A stretch of 64,000 bases of DNA, from NCBI GenBank assembly GCA_963789265.1, contig CAWBKB010000001.1:480001-544000 (forward strand), in the 5' to 3' direction. This document shows, one piece after another, positions 49,712-56,856 of this stretch. The stretch is from an uncultured delta proteobacterium (lineage in GTDB: Bacteria > Desulfobacterota > Desulfomonilia > Desulfomonilales > Desulfomonilaceae). Within the stretch, counting starts at the first letter, position 1. Each line of letters begins with the position of its first letter. A program made the position numbers and the translations under genes. Below the pieces are notes generated by a model. The model was not told the origin of the DNA. It did no database searches and worked only from the letters and a program-made list of their open reading frames with translations.

Positions 49712-50080
49712 TCATAGAGCCGATCTCACAGCCACTTGGAATATCTTTTTGTGATAGCTCACGGTGGCCCGTATTCTTAATTCTTTCGGATGGGCGTTTT
49801 GCCACCGCACTATCCTGGCATACTGGGCCCTGGCTCTTGACAGCAGCATCTCAAATCGGCCGGAGAAACGAGGCTTGGGCCGAATTTTTTCAGTAGGCCG
49901 TATCTGCTTTTTCCTCTGTTGCTCCAATTCTTGTGCAGCTTCCTTCAATGCCTGATCGAAGATAACCGCCTCCAGAGACTCCTCAGAGGCCAAGGCCGCG
50001 GCTTGAGAGACGCTTGCACCGTACAGGAATAGGCACAACACAATTAGCCACCTTGCAATTATGTGCTTCGAGGATCCCAT
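49712..50080 (-). CDS. Hypothetical exported protein
   Basis: Signal-like N-terminus, RBS ggag. Confidence 0.55.
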   Translation of the reverse strand: MGSSKHIIARWLIVLCLFLYGASVSQAAALASEESLEAVIFDQALKEAAQELEQQRKKQIRPTEKIRPKPRFSGRFEMLLSRARAQYARIVRWQNAHPKELRIRATVSYHKKIFQVAVRSAL

Positions 50081-50163
50081 AACCCCACTCCCACTCACTA
50101 ATTATGCTCTCTAAGATTCGTGAAAGTCAAAAAAGATTCAGAGTATTTTCGAGAGGTAATGAT

Positions 50164-50562
50164 TCACCGCGGAGATCGCAGAGACCGCGGAGAATTCAGT
50201 TCTGCTGCGAGTCTATCTGCCGGAACACTGCAAGTACTCGTTTGAGGCAATGAGGGAAATTAGGGCCTGACTTTACTCGTGCGCGCCTCACGTTGCCCAA
50301 ACTAATTCCCATTCGCGTTCAAGAAGGTGACACGGTATTTCCGGTAGGGGCGGGTTTCAAACCCGCCCTTACAGGTCGTCACGCCCGTGTACGCGGGAAT
50401 CTGTAGGGCCGCCCTACCCCCGTCCGGATCGGCGTCCGGGGTGACGAATGGGATCAAGATACTGACCCCGCTTGGCTCTATTTCGGAGTACCACTCGTTT
50501 GAAGGGGCATTGGTATATGCTACCCTTTTCTTCTCCGCGGTCTCCGCGTTCTCTGCGGTGAA
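50164..50562. repeat. REP-rich interval bounded by inverted tcaccgcggaga..gcagagaccgcggaga units
   Basis: The same unit occurs at ~3139, ~3305 and ~58250; internal gtaggggcgggtttcaaacccgccct also occurs at ~20819 and ~33404. Confidence 0.65.
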
Positions 50563-50598
50563 CTATTGCCTTGGATAATTACGGGCAGGCTTTATTAT

Positions 50599-52674
50599 TC
50601 ACAAACGCCGCTCGACAAGGATGACGGAAATCTCTCCCTCTCCGTACTGTTCCAGGTAGCGGCGATCCACTCCCACACAATGATCTATGTAGCAGCATCG
50701 GGCTTTAAGACATGCTTTCGGCGTCTCATTGTGCCCCATGTTGTCGGCATTGCTCACCATGTCATCGGCTTCTCGCCTCTTGATGCGCACTTCGTTCCGG
50801 CAGTTCCCAATATGTGGCAGGTGAGGAGCAATACAATAAGGCACGTTGTCAAGAATTGTCAGCGGATATTCCTGCGAGTTTATAGTGGACAATTTTTCTT
50901 TTAGAGAAGAGAGTCGGCACATGCGGCCTCTGTTGACATAAGCATTTCCATCCCATTCGGGCAGACACAGGCAATGGGCAGTAGTGCCGGCGAATCCCAG
51001 AATTTTATCCATGAGCCATTCTATCTCAGGCAGATTAAGTTCGTTAAGGCATGTGTTGACGCTAAGCCGTTCGGGTGAAACGTCATTTATCAGGCTGACA
51101 GCTCTGTACGCTTCCACAAAGCTGCCTTTCCGCCTGACGATTCGGTCGTGTGTTTCTCCGACCCCGTGCAGGGAAACCCAGAAATTCTTCATTCCCGCAT
51201 TTGTAAGTGAGAAAACCAGCTCTTCGGTTATTCCGAACCCATTGGTAAACATGAACAAGTTGTCGATTCCGTGTTCTTTTGCGAAACGAACGTAGTTCAC
51301 AAGCGAGGGGTTCAGAGTGGGTTCACCCGCGCCTGTAAAGAAAAGGGTCTTGATCCCTGCGCGGCTGGACTCCTCAATGAAATCGAATACTTCTTGATCC
51401 AAGTTAGGCGGGTTCTTACTCCTATCGTATGCCGGTGCGCAAAAGATGCAGTTGTTGGTGCACTCGAAACTTGAAAATACTACCGCCCCGGGTTCAGGCC
51501 ATCCCCAGACCAATGATCGCGATTTATCTGCACGGGTCGCGGTCCAGCCCTGCCATTTTTTCGGGTTGGTGAGAACCCGGTCTTCAACGAACGCGAATAC
51601 CTTTTTGTAAGTTTCACAGTACGGATCGGGGTGATCAGGGCTGCCTTCAGCGCTCATTGCTCTTACCGGACAGCCGCCATTGCAAAGTGGCAAATATTTG
51701 CAATCAAGGCATTCTGAGTTGCCGATCAAATTGGCCGTCCGCTCGGCGAGTTTCATTCTCATCGGCGATGTCAACAGCATGCCGAGATCATCGGATTCGA
51801 GAAGATTGCCAAAATTCCGGTCAGGATAGGAGCCCATCCACGCATCGCATTGACTCACTTCACCGCCGGGCCCGACGCAGAAAAAGCCATTTACGCAGTT
51901 TGGGCAGAAGAAGCACGGAATCTTTGCCGCAGCATCCCCCAATGTTATCCGTTCTACGATTCCCTCGTAAGGATCCAAGCGAACTCCGTCATCCCCGGAG
52001 AAGTAAACATCAAGCAGACCGACTAAGAAATCGCCCAGCATCGATGGGTCCAGGAACAATTGATCCGCCAGATGGGAAGCCGGTCCCGAGGCGAAGGGGG
52101 TATTCAATTGAATGCTCTTTAAGCCCAATTCATCTACGTAATACCGGTAAAAGTCCGAAGGGGACACTGAGAGAGTCTGTTTGTTGGGGACCGATATCAC
52201 GGACGCAGACAGGCCTCTGGAGCGAGCAATTCTGTACCTGTCAGCCCAGTGCTCATTATATGAATCGCCCGACAGGCCGCGGAATCTCCGGTGTACATTG
52301 GGATAATCCAGGGACGACCCGACGGTTCCGTCAAAAAGTTCCCATATCACCGGGTCCCAAACGGGATCGTAATCCATGAGGTTGGTCTGCAAATAAAGTT
52401 TAATTTTCAGATTGTGATTTGACATGAACGATCTTATCATACGGCCCGCTGTCAGACACCACTCGGGAGATAGAACCGTAATTTCTCCACCTTGCCAGTA
52501 CACGTCGACACTCTTAACTCCGGAGCGCGAAAGATACGAAGATATGCGGCTGAAAACAGTTTCCAAGTCTTCGAGGGACATGCTTTCCCGAGTTCTTGGT
52601 TCGAAACAGTACGCACAATTACAATTGCAATGGAAAGTAGGCACAAATATTATACTTACTTGAGGGCCGAACAT
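50599..52674 (-). CDS. Tandem radical SAM fusion: N-terminal rSAM/SPASM plus C-terminal HxsC-like rSAM
   Basis: CNCNCAYC, WQGGE, QTNL and SPASM CLDCKYLPLCNGGCP; then CTNNCIFC, GAGEPTL, FTNG, SLHG, NVPYC. Confidence 0.9.
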   Translation of the reverse strand: MFGPQVSIIFVPTFHCNCNCAYCFEPRTRESMSLEDLETVFSRISSYLSRSGVKSVDVYWQGGEITVLSPEWCLTAGRMIRSFMSNHNLKIKLYLQTNLMDYDPVWDPVIWELFDGTVGSSLDYPNVHRRFRGLSGDSYNEHWADRYRIARSRGLSASVISVPNKQTLSVSPSDFYRYYVDELGLKSIQLNTPFASGPASHLADQLFLDPSMLGDFLVGLLDVYFSGDDGVRLDPYEGIVERITLGDAAAKIPCFFCPNCVNGFFCVGPGGEVSQCDAWMGSYPDRNFGNLLESDDLGMLLTSPMRMKLAERTANLIGNSECLDCKYLPLCNGGCPVRAMSAEGSPDHPDPYCETYKKVFAFVEDRVLTNPKKWQGWTATRADKSRSLVWGWPEPGAVVFSSFECTNNCIFCAPAYDRSKNPPNLDQEVFDFIEESSRAGIKTLFFTGAGEPTLNPSLVNYVRFAKEHGIDNLFMFTNGFGITEELVFSLTNAGMKNFWVSLHGVGETHDRIVRRKGSFVEAYRAVSLINDVSPERLSVNTCLNELNLPEIEWLMDKILGFAGTTAHCLCLPEWDGNAYVNRGRMCRLSSLKEKLSTINSQEYPLTILDNVPYCIAPHLPHIGNCRNEVRIKRREADDMVSNADNMGHNETPKACLKARCCYIDHCVGVDRRYLEQYGEGEISVILVERRL

Positions 52675-52677
52675 AAT

Positions 52678-53520
52678 CTACTCCGCGACCTCTTCCGCTT
52701 TAGCAAGGTCATCGGCGATTTCCTTCGCGTTCACTTTGATCGCATTAAAAACTTCGAGAAAAGGTCCGCAGTCGAAGTCAGTGTCAACAAAACGAAGGTA
52801 GCCTTCACATAAATCGAACCTCTCGCAAGAAACGCATTTGGAACCGGACAAGACAAGGTCCTTTTTGCGGTTTATCAATTGCTTGTAAAGATCGGATTCT
52901 TCATCAATTTGCAGACCACCGGAAACCTCACCCAAGAACTTCCCGGCGCGGGCAAGTCTGGCAGAAGCCGTAACTCTTCCCAATTCGTCGACATAGAGGA
53001 ATTCCGACGGAGATTCAGGATAAAGTTTCGGGAGCGCCAACACGTTTCCTCTCAAACAGGCGCTGATCATGGAATGGAAAAAATCAACCGGAACCTGCAC
53101 ATGAGTGTCGTGCAAATAATAATTCAGTACGGACAACAGTTCACTTGTATCTGACAGCTCTTCAAGGTCCATCGTGACAGGGACCATAGCCGAGGCCGCG
53201 ATCTTCACACCTTGCAGGAGCCCTTTGTCCACATTAATAAGAGCTTCGAGTGAGAACCGATCGACGAGCCAGGTATTTGTGTAGAGCTGAGGAGCGCACT
53301 TTGGATGCAATTTGAGCCGAATCGGAAGCTGCAGCGGAAGAGCCGACAAACTATGCAGGTTCTCACTCGGATATTCCAACTCCACTCCCTTTACTCGATC
53401 GCCCAGCGTTTTATATGTGTTCACGATATCTCCGCAATTCCCTGAACGCAGGACGATATCATGAGAGTCGACTTCAGCAGCCAATCTCGGAGGAATACTT
53501 ATCAATGCTGAATTATGCAT
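52678..53520 (-). CDS. Degenerate rSAM/SPASM-like protein lacking CxxxCxxC
   Basis: Coupled to both neighbours; C-terminal CVSCERFDLCEG...C. Confidence 0.65.
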   Translation of the reverse strand: MHNSALISIPPRLAAEVDSHDIVLRSGNCGDIVNTYKTLGDRVKGVELEYPSENLHSLSALPLQLPIRLKLHPKCAPQLYTNTWLVDRFSLEALINVDKGLLQGVKIAASAMVPVTMDLEELSDTSELLSVLNYYLHDTHVQVPVDFFHSMISACLRGNVLALPKLYPESPSEFLYVDELGRVTASARLARAGKFLGEVSGGLQIDEESDLYKQLINRKKDLVLSGSKCVSCERFDLCEGYLRFVDTDFDCGPFLEVFNAIKVNAKEIADDLAKAEEVAE

Positions 53521-54601
53521 CAACTGCCTCGAAAAATTCCTTGTACCCTTCACACCAGATAGTCTTTCGCAGCCGCCCGGAAGCTGCCGCGCAGCCCCCG
53601 GCGCAATATTTCCACCAATTACAGGAACCGCACTCGTTTTGCGTGATCAACTTTCTCCTTTGGGAACGCCAAAACGCGTCGGGGTGAGATAGTAACTTGT
53701 CAAGCGGCTCAGAGGTTATGTTGCCGATTTTACCGGACGCGATGTCGAGGAGTCTCACGCACGGATAAACGTCACCTTCCGGCGAGATAGCCAAAGTAGG
53801 CTCGCAACAGTTCAGAGACTCAGAGTACGTCCGAGTGGAATCAGAGTCAACTGACGAAATTTCTTCCCAATTTACGAACGGTTCGACGGGCAACGAACTA
53901 TCGTCCCCTTTCCATGCGCGGTGAACTTCTCTGAGAAAAAGCCCCCAGGATCGCGGGTCCAGACGGGCACCTTCGAACGTATTCGCGGGCTCTTCAAGAG
54001 GTATAAGAGTTAGGCTATCCACTCCCAGGTTCTTGAAATAGTAATAGATTTCCTTGCCACGGTCTATTGATCGACCGTGCACAACATACACCATTCCAAC
54101 GTGAAATCCGCGACTTCTGACAATCTCGAAGCCCTCATACCAACGTTTCAGATAAGAGTCCCCGTTCTTGAGCCTCCTATAGTCCTGGAACGGATCAAGA
54201 GAAGTCCCGATCCCGCCTCCATTCAGAAGCTCGGCCAGAGTGTCTGCAAGCCCTTCTGTTGCCAACGTCAAATTGGACTGCATTATGTGCATCGGGCTGT
54301 TCTTGAGGATCGTTCGGTTTAGCTCCAAGACCTTCTTGTAAAAGGGCTCGCCCATCAGCATGGGTTCTCCCCCATGCCATAGGATTGTCATGTGACAGCC
54401 CGGATTTCCTTCCATGTAATTCGCGAGATTTCGGAACGTGCATTCAACGAGGGCGGGATCGGCGATTTTCGGCCTTTCTGCGACATTGCAGTAAGCGCAC
54501 TTCCCGTTGCATTGGAGAGTCGGTTTGATAACAACTTCAATGCACTTGGGCGCTTCACAGTTATTTTCAGAGGTATATGCCATAGTCAGTGGAGCCGCCA
54601 A
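53513..54601 (-). CDS. Radical SAM/SPASM peptide maturase
   Basis: KPTLQCNGKCAYC, WHGGEP, QSNL, SLD, ISPEGDVYPC, CGSCNWWKYCAGGC...C. Confidence 0.92.
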   Translation of the reverse strand: MAAPLTMAYTSENNCEAPKCIEVVIKPTLQCNGKCAYCNVAERPKIADPALVECTFRNLANYMEGNPGCHMTILWHGGEPMLMGEPFYKKVLELNRTILKNSPMHIMQSNLTLATEGLADTLAELLNGGGIGTSLDPFQDYRRLKNGDSYLKRWYEGFEIVRSRGFHVGMVYVVHGRSIDRGKEIYYYFKNLGVDSLTLIPLEEPANTFEGARLDPRSWGLFLREVHRAWKGDDSSLPVEPFVNWEEISSVDSDSTRTYSESLNCCEPTLAISPEGDVYPCVRLLDIASGKIGNITSEPLDKLLSHPDAFWRSQRRKLITQNECGSCNWWKYCAGGCAAASGRLRKTIWCEGYKEFFEAVDA

Positions 54602-54758
54602 TTTGACGCTATTTCCTCAACGGGGCCGGCGGCGGAGATGATCGGCATGAGGTCGGTGCAGTACAATCCTTATAGACTGAACCCTGCCCTGGTTACCTGG
54701 GCACAGGGCAAACAAGAAAGGGATGGACCGGCCCGAGGGCCACTAGCGCAATTTCCGC

Positions 54759-54792
54759 TCCTCTCCTGATTCGCGGGCAAATCAGGAGAGGA
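54759..54792 (-). terminator. 13-bp stem-loop between precursor and maturase genes
   Basis: tcctctcctgatt-cgcgggca-aatcaggagagga; no U tract. Confidence 0.55.
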
Positions 54793-54833
54793 AGCATGCT
54801 GTCGCTGGTCGTGAGCCTGCAACCCCCACCAGA

Positions 54834-55187
54834 CTACCAATTACCCCACACACGGCGGTGCCGCCGCCGCCAGGGCCTGTTGCCCCACACACGGCAGCCG
54901 CCGTTACCCCACACGCGGCATCCATACCACCGCCTACCGCCGTTACCCCACACTCGGCAGCGCAAGAACTGAGATTCCATGGACTCGTCGTTTGTCCCCT
55001 CCTGGTCTGGGAGACCTTCGCGGGTCGCACCCGGTTCCAACGATTCCCTCGGTCCTTCGTCGGAGCCGGATGCTTCGGAAATCCCCAGGACAGCAGTGGC
55101 CACCACTATCGACGACCATTTGCCGAGACTCGTGAGAAATGATCTCCTGCTTAGAGTCTCGTCGTCTTTCTTGTTCTTGTCGTCCAT
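54834..55187 (-). CDS. Putative RiPP precursor (twin-arginine leader; core with CRVWGN x3 and RRVWGNW)
   Basis: Strong RBS ggagga; SRRSFL followed by a hydrophobic stretch; acidic spacer; Arg/Gly/Trp core; directly upstream of the rSAM genes. Confidence 0.88.
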   Translation of the reverse strand: MDDKNKKDDETLSRRSFLTSLGKWSSIVVATAVLGISEASGSDEGPRESLEPGATREGLPDQEGTNDESMESQFLRCRVWGNGGRRWYGCRVWGNGGCRVWGNRPWRRRHRRVWGNW

Positions 55188-55348
55188 TTTATCTCCTCCA
55201 AACGAAACCAAAACAATCGGTTAATCTGAATGAATTTTCCTGTGCGCACATCGGCCGGTCCTGGAAACACCCGGCCCACTCAATCACTAATTCTCCAACC
55301 CAAGAGCAACTTCGTGCAAGGCCGTTCACCCTTAAAAGAAGCCCCTGG

Positions 55349-55834
55349 CTATTTCCCCGGTGGAGGCGGTTGCTCGGGGAACGAGAAATGGGACTGAATC
55401 AGGAGCCATTTGCCGTCCTTCTTCTCAAGCACTCCCGACCATAGACCCATTTGCTGAAACTTGTCTTCCCCGGTATCGACGTCGAACAACACCTCGGTGG
55501 CAAACCACCCCACGTCATCCTTAGACCCGACCGACGTCCATTTGTACTGTCCCTTTACCGATTTTACTTCCTTTAGACTGCCCTCATAAGCCGCTCTGAC
55601 CTGGTCCGTGCCTACGTAGCGCCCTTTTTCGTCGGCTTCAAAGAAAACCACGTTAGCTTCTGGCGCAATCATCTTCATTATTGCGTTCACGTCCTTCTTC
55701 GAATAGGCCGCTTGAAATTGAGCGAGGAAGTTTTTGATCTCTTGGTCGGTCTTGGAATCTGCCGTTGCGACTGTCGTCGCCCCGATTGTAATTGCCGTCG
55801 CGATACTCAGCACCAGTAGAATTGCACTTCGCAT
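55349..55834 (-). CDS. Exported NTF2/SnoaL-like protein
   Basis: Signal peptide; AYSKKDV.AI, VLEKKDGKWLLIQSHFSFP. Confidence 0.82.
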   Translation of the reverse strand: MRSAILLVLSIATAITIGATTVATADSKTDQEIKNFLAQFQAAYSKKDVNAIMKMIAPEANVVFFEADEKGRYVGTDQVRAAYEGSLKEVKSVKGQYKWTSVGSKDDVGWFATEVLFDVDTGEDKFQQMGLWSGVLEKKDGKWLLIQSHFSFPEQPPPPGK

Positions 55835-56208
55835 AATTGCCTGCCCCTTAATTTCGTGAAACGCAGCGAAAAACTTCTATCATTATGCAGAACAACCATA
55901 CTAGTTCTTTTGTAGATTGCCGGGAAGGTATCTGTCAAGAAGAATCAGTCCGTGAGTGTGACGGGAGCCGGCAGGAGCAGCTCATGGCAGGACGTGTCCT
56001 CTCCCGACAATTTCGAGTTCCGCGCGGGGCCGGACTACTATCGAACGTCCCTCCGGGAGGCTTGGTATGTAAGCCCCATGGAGGCGATTGAAAAATGGCC
56101 GGTGCCTCAGCGCCGGCTGACACCCTTGAATCCTTCGGCACGTGGCCGCATCTAATTTAAATGCAATGACAAATTGAGCTTTAAGAGATTTGATCTGGAG
56201 AATGAAGC

Positions 56209-56856
56209 ATGGAAATTAATCGAAAACTGAGCATATTATTGGTCCTGGTGGCCGTATCATTCGCCGTGACCACAGTATCGGTTTTGCCTGCGTGGGCGGC
56301 CACCGGCAAGTCCAAACAGGCCTCTGTAAAGGCCAAGAAACGGCATTTGTCCTACAGGGCGAGGCGGATAAAAAAAGTCAACGGCTCCTATATTCCGCAA
56401 GCGCAGCCGCGAACCGTTGCGAGTGCTCCTGCCACGGTCTGTTATGGAAGTTGGCAGCAATCCTTGTATGGGCCGGTCTATACATCATGGTGCCAAGCAG
56501 CAACCGCTTCCAGTCAAGGCTCCGGACAGGCTGAAGGCTGGGCCGCACCGGCACGATCGTCCGGGAGACAAAGCGGGGCAGCACCCCCGGCCGGTGGATA
56601 CGCTCCCCCACCCCAGCAGGTAAATGTCATTAGCCCGCCAGCAAGCGTCTGTTACAGCGGTTGCGTTCCTTATTGGACCGGTCAGGTTTACTCATCGTGG
56701 TGTCAGCCGGCCACCGCCTACAACGCTAACTCCGAACAAACAACTAACTGGGCAGTCCCGGCTCAAACGTACAGAACTCAGAGCTATGCGGCCCCTCAGG
56801 CCGGTCAACCCGGTACTGTCTGCAATGTTGGCAGTTGGCTGCCTTGTTGGTGGTAG
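56209..56856 (+). CDS. Secreted Cys/Trp repeat protein
   Basis: RBS ggag, signal peptide, duplicated VCY...VY.SWCQ.ATA...WA.PA unit. Confidence 0.72.
   Translation: MEINRKLSILLVLVAVSFAVTTVSVLPAWAATGKSKQASVKAKKRHLSYRARRIKKVNGSYIPQAQPRTVASAPATVCYGSWQQSLYGPVYTSWCQAATASSQGSGQAEGWAAPARSSGRQSGAAPPAGGYAPPPQQVNVISPPASVCYSGCVPYWTGQVYSSWCQPATAYNANSEQTTNWAVPAQTYRTQSYAAPQAGQPGTVCNVGSWLPCWW

Follow-up and report, generated by a model that had tools for sequence, protein, structure and literature searches.

What becomes of a short repeat peptide that is encoded together with three radical S-adenosylmethionine (SAM) domains and one related protein without a SAM motif? This question is raised by a cluster of four minus-strand genes at positions 50599 to 55187 of a 64,000-nucleotide stretch of DNA (the window; contig CAWBKB010000001.1 of assembly GCA_963789265.1) from an uncultured Desulfomonilaceae bacterium related to sulfate reducers. 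The genes encode a precursor of 117 aa, a radical SAM protein of 356 aa (rS1), a partner of 280 aa, and a protein of 691 aa that joins two radical SAM domains (dblN and dblC). We find that the cluster is an undescribed variant of the radical SAM repeat-peptide systems with three unusual features: a leader of the twin-arginine translocation (Tat) type, a dead-enzyme subunit, and a modular pairing of enzymes with peptide cores. Our reading, to which we give a probability of roughly 60%, is that in this real and conserved cluster a Trp/Cys/Arg-rich repeat peptide is cross-linked by radical SAM chemistry in the cytoplasm, organized by the partner, and then exported via Tat. The features on which the argument is built are the following.

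54834..55187, minus strand: precursor gene, 117 aa plus stop, with Tat-type signal/leader, acidic spacer and cationic repeat core (open reading frame (ORF), related clusters, second copy)
55071..55187, minus strand: Tat-type signal/leader, residues 1-39 (alignment of 20 precursors, sub-threshold NCBIfam matches, NCBI name of an orthologue)
54972..55070, minus strand: acidic, propeptide-like spacer, residues 40-72 (net charge in related precursors)
54837..54971, minus strand: core QFLRCRVWGNGGRRWYGCRVWGNGGCRVWGNRPWRRRHRRVWGNW, residues 73-117, with four (C/R)RVWGN units (sequence, repeat search)
53513..54583, minus strand: rS1, radical SAM/SPASM protein, 356 aa, anSME-like, without a RiPP recognition element (RRE) domain (Pfam, NCBIfam)
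52678..53520, minus strand: partner, 280 aa, modelled as a radical SAM/SPASM fold without SAM cluster, invariant CxxCx5Cx12C (alignment, AF2, VIA-align, Foldseek)
51520..52674, minus strand: dblN, N-terminal radical SAM/SPASM half (residues 1-385) of the 691-aa protein (NCBIfam alignments, homologue in a second cluster)
50599..51519, minus strand: dblC, third radical SAM domain at the C-terminal end of the 691-aa protein (residues 386-691), with additional conserved Cys (PF04055 at 404-556, alignment)

The earlier note on this DNA had described a same-strand cluster of four genes with coupled maturase genes, and its coordinates hold. The precursor ORF runs from the ATG at 55187 to the stop at 54834-54836 and is preceded by GGAGGAG; the partner ATG (53520) and the rS1 stop (53513-53515) overlap by 8 nt, and the ATG of the 691-aa gene (52674) lies 3 nt past the partner stop (52678-52680), so that the genes overlap or nearly abut. 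Two starts were revised: rS1 most likely starts at ATG 54583 and not at TTG 54601, giving 356 aa as in its orthologues, and the partner start was corrected to ATG 53520 (280 aa, matching database proteins). The proposed set of three radical SAM domains and one SAM-less partner was borne out by three CX3CX2C motifs (CNCNCAYC and CTNNCIFC in the 691-aa protein, CNGKCAYC in rS1) and by PF04055 scores of 85.4 bits (two stretches) and 41.1 bits, respectively, above the cut-off of 29.5. The partner has no CX3CX2C motif and gave no Pfam and no NCBIfam match. The view that the locus is a precursor with radical SAM/SPASM peptide-modifying maturases can also be maintained; no curated family threshold was reached and no published description was found.

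The core consists of 18-bp units at 54942-54959, 54903-54920, 54879-54896 and 54840-54857 (minus strand), which encode CRVWGN three times and RRVWGN once. As the note had stated, most of the differences between the units are synonymous (Arg cga/cgc/cgt/cgt, Gly ggt/ggt/ggc/ggt, Asn aac/aac/aac/aat), and a repeat search likewise recovered a four-copy family in the precursor gene. Homologous precursors and synteny, which the note had put forward as a check, were found in quantity: 50 related precursor clusters contained 149 units (137 CRVWGN, 8 CRVWGH, 3 RRVWGN and 1 SRVWGN), mostly three per precursor (range 0-6) and separated by linkers of 1-3 residues. Given the varying linkers, the conserved entity is the hexapeptide itself and not an N-x-x-C spacing, and judged by this conservation the CRVWGN repeat is not a matter of chance. 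Two CRVWGN-type clusters from relatives in the genus look damaged, unless the assembly is faulty: in L019 (G006) the precursor frame is lost after the second unit and the 691-aa gene is split into ORFs of 205 and 562 aa, and in L018 (G002) the latter gene is split into ORFs of 66 and 671 aa.

To see how far the system extends, the partner was used as a handle in a genome survey that covered the phylum of the window. Its family was found in 19 of 61 relatives, including all six genomes of the genus, in 28 of 70 Desulfomonilaceae genomes (13 of 26 genera) and, in a phylum-wide sample of 401 genomes, in 19. When 1.84 billion representatives were searched with a profile, 657 matched at E <= 1e-3, 393 at E <= 1e-10 and 165 at E <= 1e-30. 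Fifty loci were fetched, of which eight (L036, L044-L050), representing a distant partner-like subfamily, were set aside, leaving 42 loci including the window. As the loci were found through the partner, it is present at every one of them; precursors were recovered with the leader pattern in 36 of the 42, and two loci (L064 and L038) were cut by contig ends. Sorted by the enzymes that accompany the partner, the loci show the following cores.

rS1 only, nine complete loci (L026, L029, L030, L052, L055, L056, L060, L061, L062): Arg/Cys repeat cores
dblN only, eight of eleven loci (L004, L025, L031, L037, L040, L041, L042, L057): 5-16 W-x-N in Gly-rich repeats (GGWHN, AWANR, GGGGWSNKS)
dblN only (L028): 13 W-x-N/H
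dblN only, exceptions (L035, with 11 tandem precursors, and L053): cores without W-x-N
rS1 plus dblN (L034): WVHWG plus CGRG core
rS1 plus dblN, exception (L058): GGWHK core with a single Cys
rS1 plus dblN plus dblC (11 CRVWGN-type loci including the window): CRVWGN repeats
Partner-dblC fusion plus dblN (L027): APWNKWGKW core, no Cys

All nine rS1-only cores are built from Arg/Cys repeats (WRCG, RCRC, CRGC, RC, RGC, RRC, GPRC) with 5-22 Cys and no W-x-N, and the pairing is seen again in six or more rS1 sublineages whose cores differ, as well as in about seven dblN sublineages. The two SPASM enzymes themselves form separate clades, dblN with 24 of 24 sequences monophyletic (split support 1.0) and rS1 with 22 of 22 (support 0.949 without L043), in a MAFFT and FastTree tree of 54 of the 56 sequences from which the mis-trimmed L018_dblN_5998 and L019_dblN_9432 were dropped. 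This co-variation of enzyme and core is the main support for the view that dblN would act on the Trp-x-Asn part and rS1 on the Cys/Arg part of CRVWGN. The earlier note had suggested Trp-x-Asn cyclophanes combined with Cys modification by the extra enzymes, and the comparative genomics of the 42 loci lends that idea indirect support. On the same sequence comparisons, the window cluster represents a single subtype within a family that extends much further.

A second, smaller and paralogous cluster lies within the same genome (G000 contig 7, 316441-319119; locus L004, 7441-10119). In its precursor the leader reads RREFL...LGKWS, the spacer is long and rich in His/Lys (HPKKQHKAEQKKGHEHKKEH...), and the core combines six A/G-W-x-N units with three of the form CRVWGNGG; this gene is followed only by a partner (45% identical) and by a stand-alone enzyme of 373 aa that is 57% identical to the dblN half. 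The minimal set therefore consists of a precursor, the partner and one SPASM enzyme. Immediately downstream of this cluster there is an amidohydrolase-like ORF, together with transposase-like ORFs.

With respect to enzyme family, SPASM proteins are defined by a C-terminal auxiliary-cluster domain with CX2CX5CX3C, and rS1 scores above the cut-offs for this domain (PF13186, 27.4 against a cut-off of 21.5; TIGR04085, 50.8 bits against 27). dblN has no Pfam SPASM match, but CLDCKYLPLCNGGC is present and the protein aligns to DynA, TIGR04083 and the anaerobic sulfatase-maturing enzyme (anSME) over residues 8-368 (NCBIfam). In NCBIfam both enzymes match DynA (top), TIGR04083, anSME, DarE/DarW and YhhB, and rS1 also AmcB, GrrM/OscB and FxsB; of these, DynA, DarE/DarW, AmcB, YhhB and GrrM/OscB are enzymes that cross-link peptides. 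All these named-family matches lie between 44 and 139 bits, against cut-offs of 300-650. The candidate memberships were rejected on these scores: DynA (NF041298, 117.6 and 138.8 bits against 450), DarE (NF038005, 80.5 and 68.3 against 650), YhhB (NF041707, 55.4 and 55.7 against 445), FxsB (TIGR04269, 44.3 against 370), AmcB (NF041718, 79.7 against 425), the anaerobic sulfatase maturase (TIGR03942, 104.9 and 135.4 against 349.45) and GrrM/OscB (TIGR04261, 58.6 for rS1 against 310, the family being outside the best 25 matches of the 691-aa protein). The GrrA/OscA1 precursor family (TIGR04260) matched at 8.1 bits (E 3.9) against a cut-off of 31. By sequence, rS1 and dblN thus resemble known SPASM peptide maturases yet belong to none of those families.

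The nearest solved sequence is anSME for both enzymes (E 5e-19 for rS1, 8.5e-13 for dblN), which brings up the possibility that rS1 acts as anSME does and converts Cys to formylglycine, or performs another oxidation that does not cross-link, instead of forming a thioether. Its TIGR03942 score of 135.4 bits is level with that for DynA, and anSME modifies a Cys in a protein that bears an export signal, before export, as would be the case here. We consider such chemistry distinctly improbable, as the score stays under the anSME cut-off of 349, most subtype cores lack the sulfatase C/S-x-P/A-x-R context, and repeat cores with many Cys are typical of thioether systems such as CrpC/CrpA (PMC13692751, in the part of the paper available). 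Thioether formation is therefore kept below as the likeliest activity of rS1.

For the third domain, dblC, the alignment shows invariant Cys at C20/C24/C27 (the SAM motif) and at C157, C201, C229, C270, C275 and C281 (alignment numbering). A search for stand-alone homologues gave four fragments on short contigs, so dblC almost never occurs alone. Foldseek related it to generic radical SAM cores only (viperin, PqqE, MoaA, SkfB and EpeE; TMq <= 0.5).

The partner, which is constant while the enzymes vary, was studied at the level of structure. In an alignment of 19 sequences R25, C229, C232, C238 and C251 (CxxCx5Cx12C) are invariant, and the AlphaFold2 (AF2) model has a predicted local distance difference test (pLDDT) score of 92.3. 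Compared by VIA-align with ChlB, a triceptide synthase, the model gave Z 15.1 and a root-mean-square deviation of 3.4 with 260 of the 280 residues aligned, over residues 3-272; anSME (Z 14.5) and CteB (Z 13.8) followed closely, and unrelated TIM-barrel rows scored around Z 6-8. A Foldseek search with the same model also returned matches of the radical SAM/SPASM type, including ChlB entries. Going by this model, the partner is a whole radical SAM/SPASM-type fold that has lost the cluster that binds SAM. Its retained Cys pattern presumably corresponds to the ligands of auxiliary cluster II in the anSME structure, and it probably keeps one auxiliary Fe-S site.

Fused forms of the partner point to its working context. 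Eight of the 11 examined are joined to a Radical_SAM domain, the other three to methyltransferase and/or DUF483 domains, and the former fusions support a physical cooperation with active enzymes. The ChlB structure entries are, by their titles, complexes with the leader region of a precursor, which means that no RRE is needed for a fold like that of ChlB to bind a leader. By analogy we infer that the partner may bind the leader in the ChlB manner; when the partner was modelled in complex with residues 1-50 of the precursor, the score was 0.02 (mark 0.32), which bears neither way on binding. The partner-like proteins of the eight loci set aside (L036, L044-L050; about 290 aa) always stand beside a radical SAM/SPASM protein, the length of which ranges from 368 to 969 aa and is about 710 aa at four of the loci. 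No precursor with the family leader was found at these loci, and the subfamily may represent a sister system.

Turning to the leader, precursor residues 13-25 read S-R-R-S-F-L-T-S-L-G-K-W-S and are followed by the hydrophobic region SIVVATAVLGI and by S-E-A and S-G, between which lies a possible signal-peptidase site. Compared with the Tat pattern S/T-R-R-x-F-L-K, moderately hydrophobic region and small-x-small cleavage site, the precursor presents S-R-R-S-F-L-T, SIVVATAVLGI and S-E-A before S. R14, R15, F17, K23, W24, S25 and G35 are invariant in the alignment of 20 precursors. On eight precursors NCBIfam gave no more than sub-threshold matches, of which those to the leader segment were all Tat substrates (formate_TAT, DmsA; TIGR02811, E 0.0013-0.25), and one orthologue carries the NCBI name 'twin-arginine translocation signal domain-containing protein'. 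For 48 of the 50 related precursors, the median net charge is -5.5 (-10 to -2) in the spacer, which here has around 33 residues, and +7 (+3 to +12) in the core. The genome encodes TatC (one match) and TatA/B/E (four matches), so that the pathway is present. The cluster encodes no dedicated protease or transporter, and no recurrent ABC transporter or leader peptidase was seen among 134 flanking ORFs of 20 loci (four long ORFs were dropped for size).

From these observations we infer the chemical steps, the binding of the leader, the export and the role as follows. The precursor would be made with a twin-arginine-type signal that doubles as the common leader of the family. dblN would link Trp to Asn in each W-G-N, giving three-residue cyclophanes as in the triceptides, rS1 would act on the Cys that stands beside Arg in each unit, a thioether being the likeliest outcome, and dblC would add a further modification. 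The partner, presumed to be catalytically dead, would most likely serve the active enzyme of a given locus, of either kind, as a scaffold or as the subunit that binds the leader. The acidic spacer may mask the cationic core until it is removed. The finished peptide would leave the cytoplasm via the general Tat system, and signal peptidase would cut it; this would account for the absence of dedicated protease and transporter genes. Tat translocates folded cargo, which fits a peptide that is cross-linked in the cytoplasm.

Tat-exported redox enzymes have proofreading chaperones, and by analogy the dead partner could be a dedicated chaperone of the Tat-type leader that keeps the precursor available to the active radical SAM module at hand (the Trp-directed one, the Cys-directed one or the third domain) and releases it to the translocon only once it is fully cross-linked, the cationic polycyclic products then acting in the periplasm or at the surface, as a phage barrier or in the binding of metals or minerals, and not as secreted antibiotics of the classical kind. 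We offer this extension tentatively and regard it as possible though rather doubtful. If true, it would describe a modular route by which ribosomal peptides are first modified and then exported by Tat, with neither a protease nor a transporter of their own.

Several observations weigh against the proposed pathway of cross-linking and Tat export. The chemistry is assigned by analogy only, because no score reaches any curated family cut-off, and the matches of dblC are to generic radical SAM folds only (model pLDDT 68.7). As to the pairing, two of the dblN-only loci (L035 and L053) and one of the two loci with rS1 and dblN (L058) depart from the rule, related loci are not independent samples, and six of the 42 (L032, L033, L039, L043, L059 and L063) gave no precursor. 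On contig 7, no rS1 or dblC gene adjoins the precursor in spite of its three CRVWGN units, and this precursor would need the enzymes of the window in trans. On the eight precursors tested, all curated Tat-signal models stayed below threshold, and the conservation of the leader is partly by construction, because the precursors were in part found with the leader pattern. The segment could also be a leader for enzyme recognition or a membrane anchor.

This last point can be formulated as an alternative, in which RR...KWS is a recognition leader or uncleaved anchor only and the peptide either stays cytoplasmic or tethered or is released by an unlinked protease and transporter. Leaders of peptides that are made by the ribosome and modified after translation (RiPPs) normally serve recognition, and the conservation of L-G-K-W-S exceeds the general Tat consensus. 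Against this alternative stand S-R-R-x-F-L followed by a hydrophobic stretch of 12-18 residues and small-x-small sites, the weak family matches, all of them to Tat substrates, the orthologue that NCBI names as a Tat-signal protein, and the finding that no dedicated export or protease genes recur in the 20 loci. We think it unlikely, and retain a Tat-type signal that also serves as the leader.

Two further features adjoin the precursor gene.

54757..54795, minus strand: stable stem-loop of about 14-15 bp without a T-run (RNA fold)
55349..55834, minus strand: SnoaL_3/DUF4440-like protein with N-terminal signal sequence, directly upstream of the precursor (Pfam SnoaL_3, 8.7e-17)

The stem-loop sits behind the precursor stop in the 250-nt spacer ahead of the rS1 gene (fold of 54600-54836, z -2.19) and may be a transcript-stabilizing or attenuating element. 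In most of 20 loci the precursor genes are likewise followed by hairpins, with -15 to -31 kcal/mol per 50 nt; they are non-homologous, and these values come without a shuffle control. No Rfam family was found in 50000-56500, and a simple promoter/terminator scan gave nothing above shuffles near the precursor. In 13 of the 42 partner loci a SnoaL-like homologue is encoded at a distance of 9-162 nt from the precursor; among them are distant loci of both enzyme types, with homologues of 25-29% identity, and the protein may be a periplasmic accessory or immunity component. A divergently oriented gene at 56209-56856 (plus strand) encodes a signal-bearing protein of 215 aa with no Pfam match and an internal duplication (SVCY.G…Y.SWCQ.AT twice), which is kept beside the cluster in four relatives from the genus (L017, L019, L021, L022).

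Other neighbours recur in the wider family. Proteins of 565-685 aa with Pfam CXCXC repeats are encoded just upstream of GGWHN-type precursors (L025, 3355-5055; L042, 4522-6573; L057, 4588-6552), and proteins with TPR and GDSL-lipase domains (L034, L060, L061) or ankyrin repeats (L034, L057, L058) are found near the clusters. Extra radical SAM genes occur at L028 (10057-12459) and L060 (9002-10849), namely a fusion of radical SAM with a PrmA-like methyltransferase and a B12-binding radical SAM protein. The 11 tandem precursors of L035 (G006 contig 14, 473000-490000; 6551-16914) share an RR(E/Q)FFNGLGKWS leader ahead of varied cores, and the array adjoins a dblN-type enzyme and a fusion of 1226 aa that combines radical SAM, partner, DUF483 and methyltransferase parts.

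New antibiotics and new enzyme chemistry are at present being drawn from peptides that radical SAM enzymes cross-link, darobactin, dynobactin and the triceptides among them. Within this context, the two enzyme clades paired with two core chemistries would yield testable substrate rules (W-x-N/H versus Arg-Cys), and the constant dead paralogue bears on the recognition of leaders by SPASM enzymes that lack an RRE. Removal of the leader and export by Tat, if true, would make the pathways portable with three to four genes. From CRVWGN, which is conserved at all six positions and served by three radical SAM domains, a cationic scaffold with an unusual density of rings could result. Candidate roles for the product are an antibiotic, a periplasmic effector like that of HXS (see below), and a metal binder.

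In the literature consulted no description was found of a Tat-type leader on a radical SAM-modified peptide, nor of the partner. The window cluster can be set beside the triceptides and their radical SAM/SPASM enzymes for three-residue cyclophanes (XncB, OscB/GrrM, ChlB, YhhB, HaaB and HtkB). Triceptides are defined by aromatic-X-X cyclophanes, and for them around 3,900 putative pathways are reported in the accessible part of PMC11499958. Shared are the aromatic-X-X repeats, the Gly-rich core and an anSME-like maturase without RRE. The motif is present here as four W-G-N in the window and in nine of the 11 dblN-only loci (5-16 W-x-N or 13 W-x-N/H), and the best structural match of the partner is ChlB. 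rS1 and dblN may sit in an uncharacterized cluster of the triceptide network published there. Triceptides have a plain leader, whereas the window system has a Tat-type signal, the constant dead-enzyme partner and a third radical SAM domain; its units moreover carry a conserved Cys-Arg and are accompanied by a second SPASM enzyme. The hosts differ as well, being cyanobacteria or Proteobacteria for triceptides and Desulfobacterota here.

A comparison is also offered by DynA and DarE, DynA being the top NCBIfam match of both SPASM enzymes. Dynobactin carries a Trp-to-Asn carbon-carbon link. Its sequence is WNSNVHSYRF (PMC10125368, as far as the excerpt goes). In contrast to the cluster described here, these systems make do with one enzyme, their cores are short and present in a single copy, and export is of the ABC type, without a partner and without a Tat signal. 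anSME is the closest solved relative of rS1 and dblN and a near-top structural match of the partner, but its substrate is a sulfatase and not a short repeat peptide. The Cys-repeat thioether systems (ranthipeptides; CrpC/CrpA) have a leader followed by a repeated Cys motif that a SPASM radical SAM enzyme modifies, and offer an analogy for rS1 with its RC, RGC and GPRC cores; CrpC differs in its RRE domain and its acceptor motif C-X-X-Q/D (both from the available text of PMC13692751), and no family match at the sequence level was seen. The haloarchaeal pseudo-SAM/SPASM family TIGR04347 is a precedent for SPASM-family proteins without a functional SAM cluster, although the partner gave no NCBIfam match and only dblC matched TIGR04347 (78.5 bits against 525).

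At the level of the whole system the likeness is greatest to the His-Xaa-Ser (HXS) antiphage system (HxsA/B/C/D), in which, according to the accessible sections of PMC13128918, a signal-bearing basic repeat substrate is matured in the cytoplasm by two radical SAM enzymes and an accessory protein that is not itself an active radical SAM enzyme, and is then exported; the effector stays in the periplasm and blocks the entry of phage DNA by binding DNA. This suggests that the maturation proposed here might end in a periplasmic effector instead of a diffusible antibiotic. The strongly cationic core (+3 to +12 in the family), the export signal of the precursor, a cluster without transporter or immunity gene and the match of dblC to HxsC4 (74.8 bits) are in line with such an outcome. 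The Hxs cut-offs are missed by a wide margin, however (HxsB, TIGR03978, 57.1 and 46.4 against 370; HxsC4 74.8 against 500), there is no HxsD match, the partner included, and the core lacks HxS repeats, so that membership of HXS was rejected. The partner has a radical SAM/SPASM fold and differs in this from HxsD, which is small and unrelated. HxsA has 214 residues with a peptidoglycan-binding domain, which is absent from the much smaller peptide of the window, and 99.7% of HXS systems belong to Pseudomonadota (same source, to the same extent). The flanks show no defence island. PADLOC-DB v2 gave just weak viperin-type pVip radical SAM matches (52.2 and 19.3 bits) and no match of a system-specific model; the partner, the precursor and three of four neighbours had no match, and the SnoaL-like neighbour one marginal match (CARF7--CARF_DUF2103, E 0.007, 13.6 bits). 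An HXS-like effector is, in our estimation, an improbable product, but if the peptide does act in the periplasm like HxsA, the newly found class of defence effectors matured by radical SAM enzymes would extend beyond Pseudomonadota. The reading that we prefer remains the cytoplasmic cross-linking of the repeat peptide followed by Tat export, and for that reading HXS is the closest systems-level analogue, not a relative.

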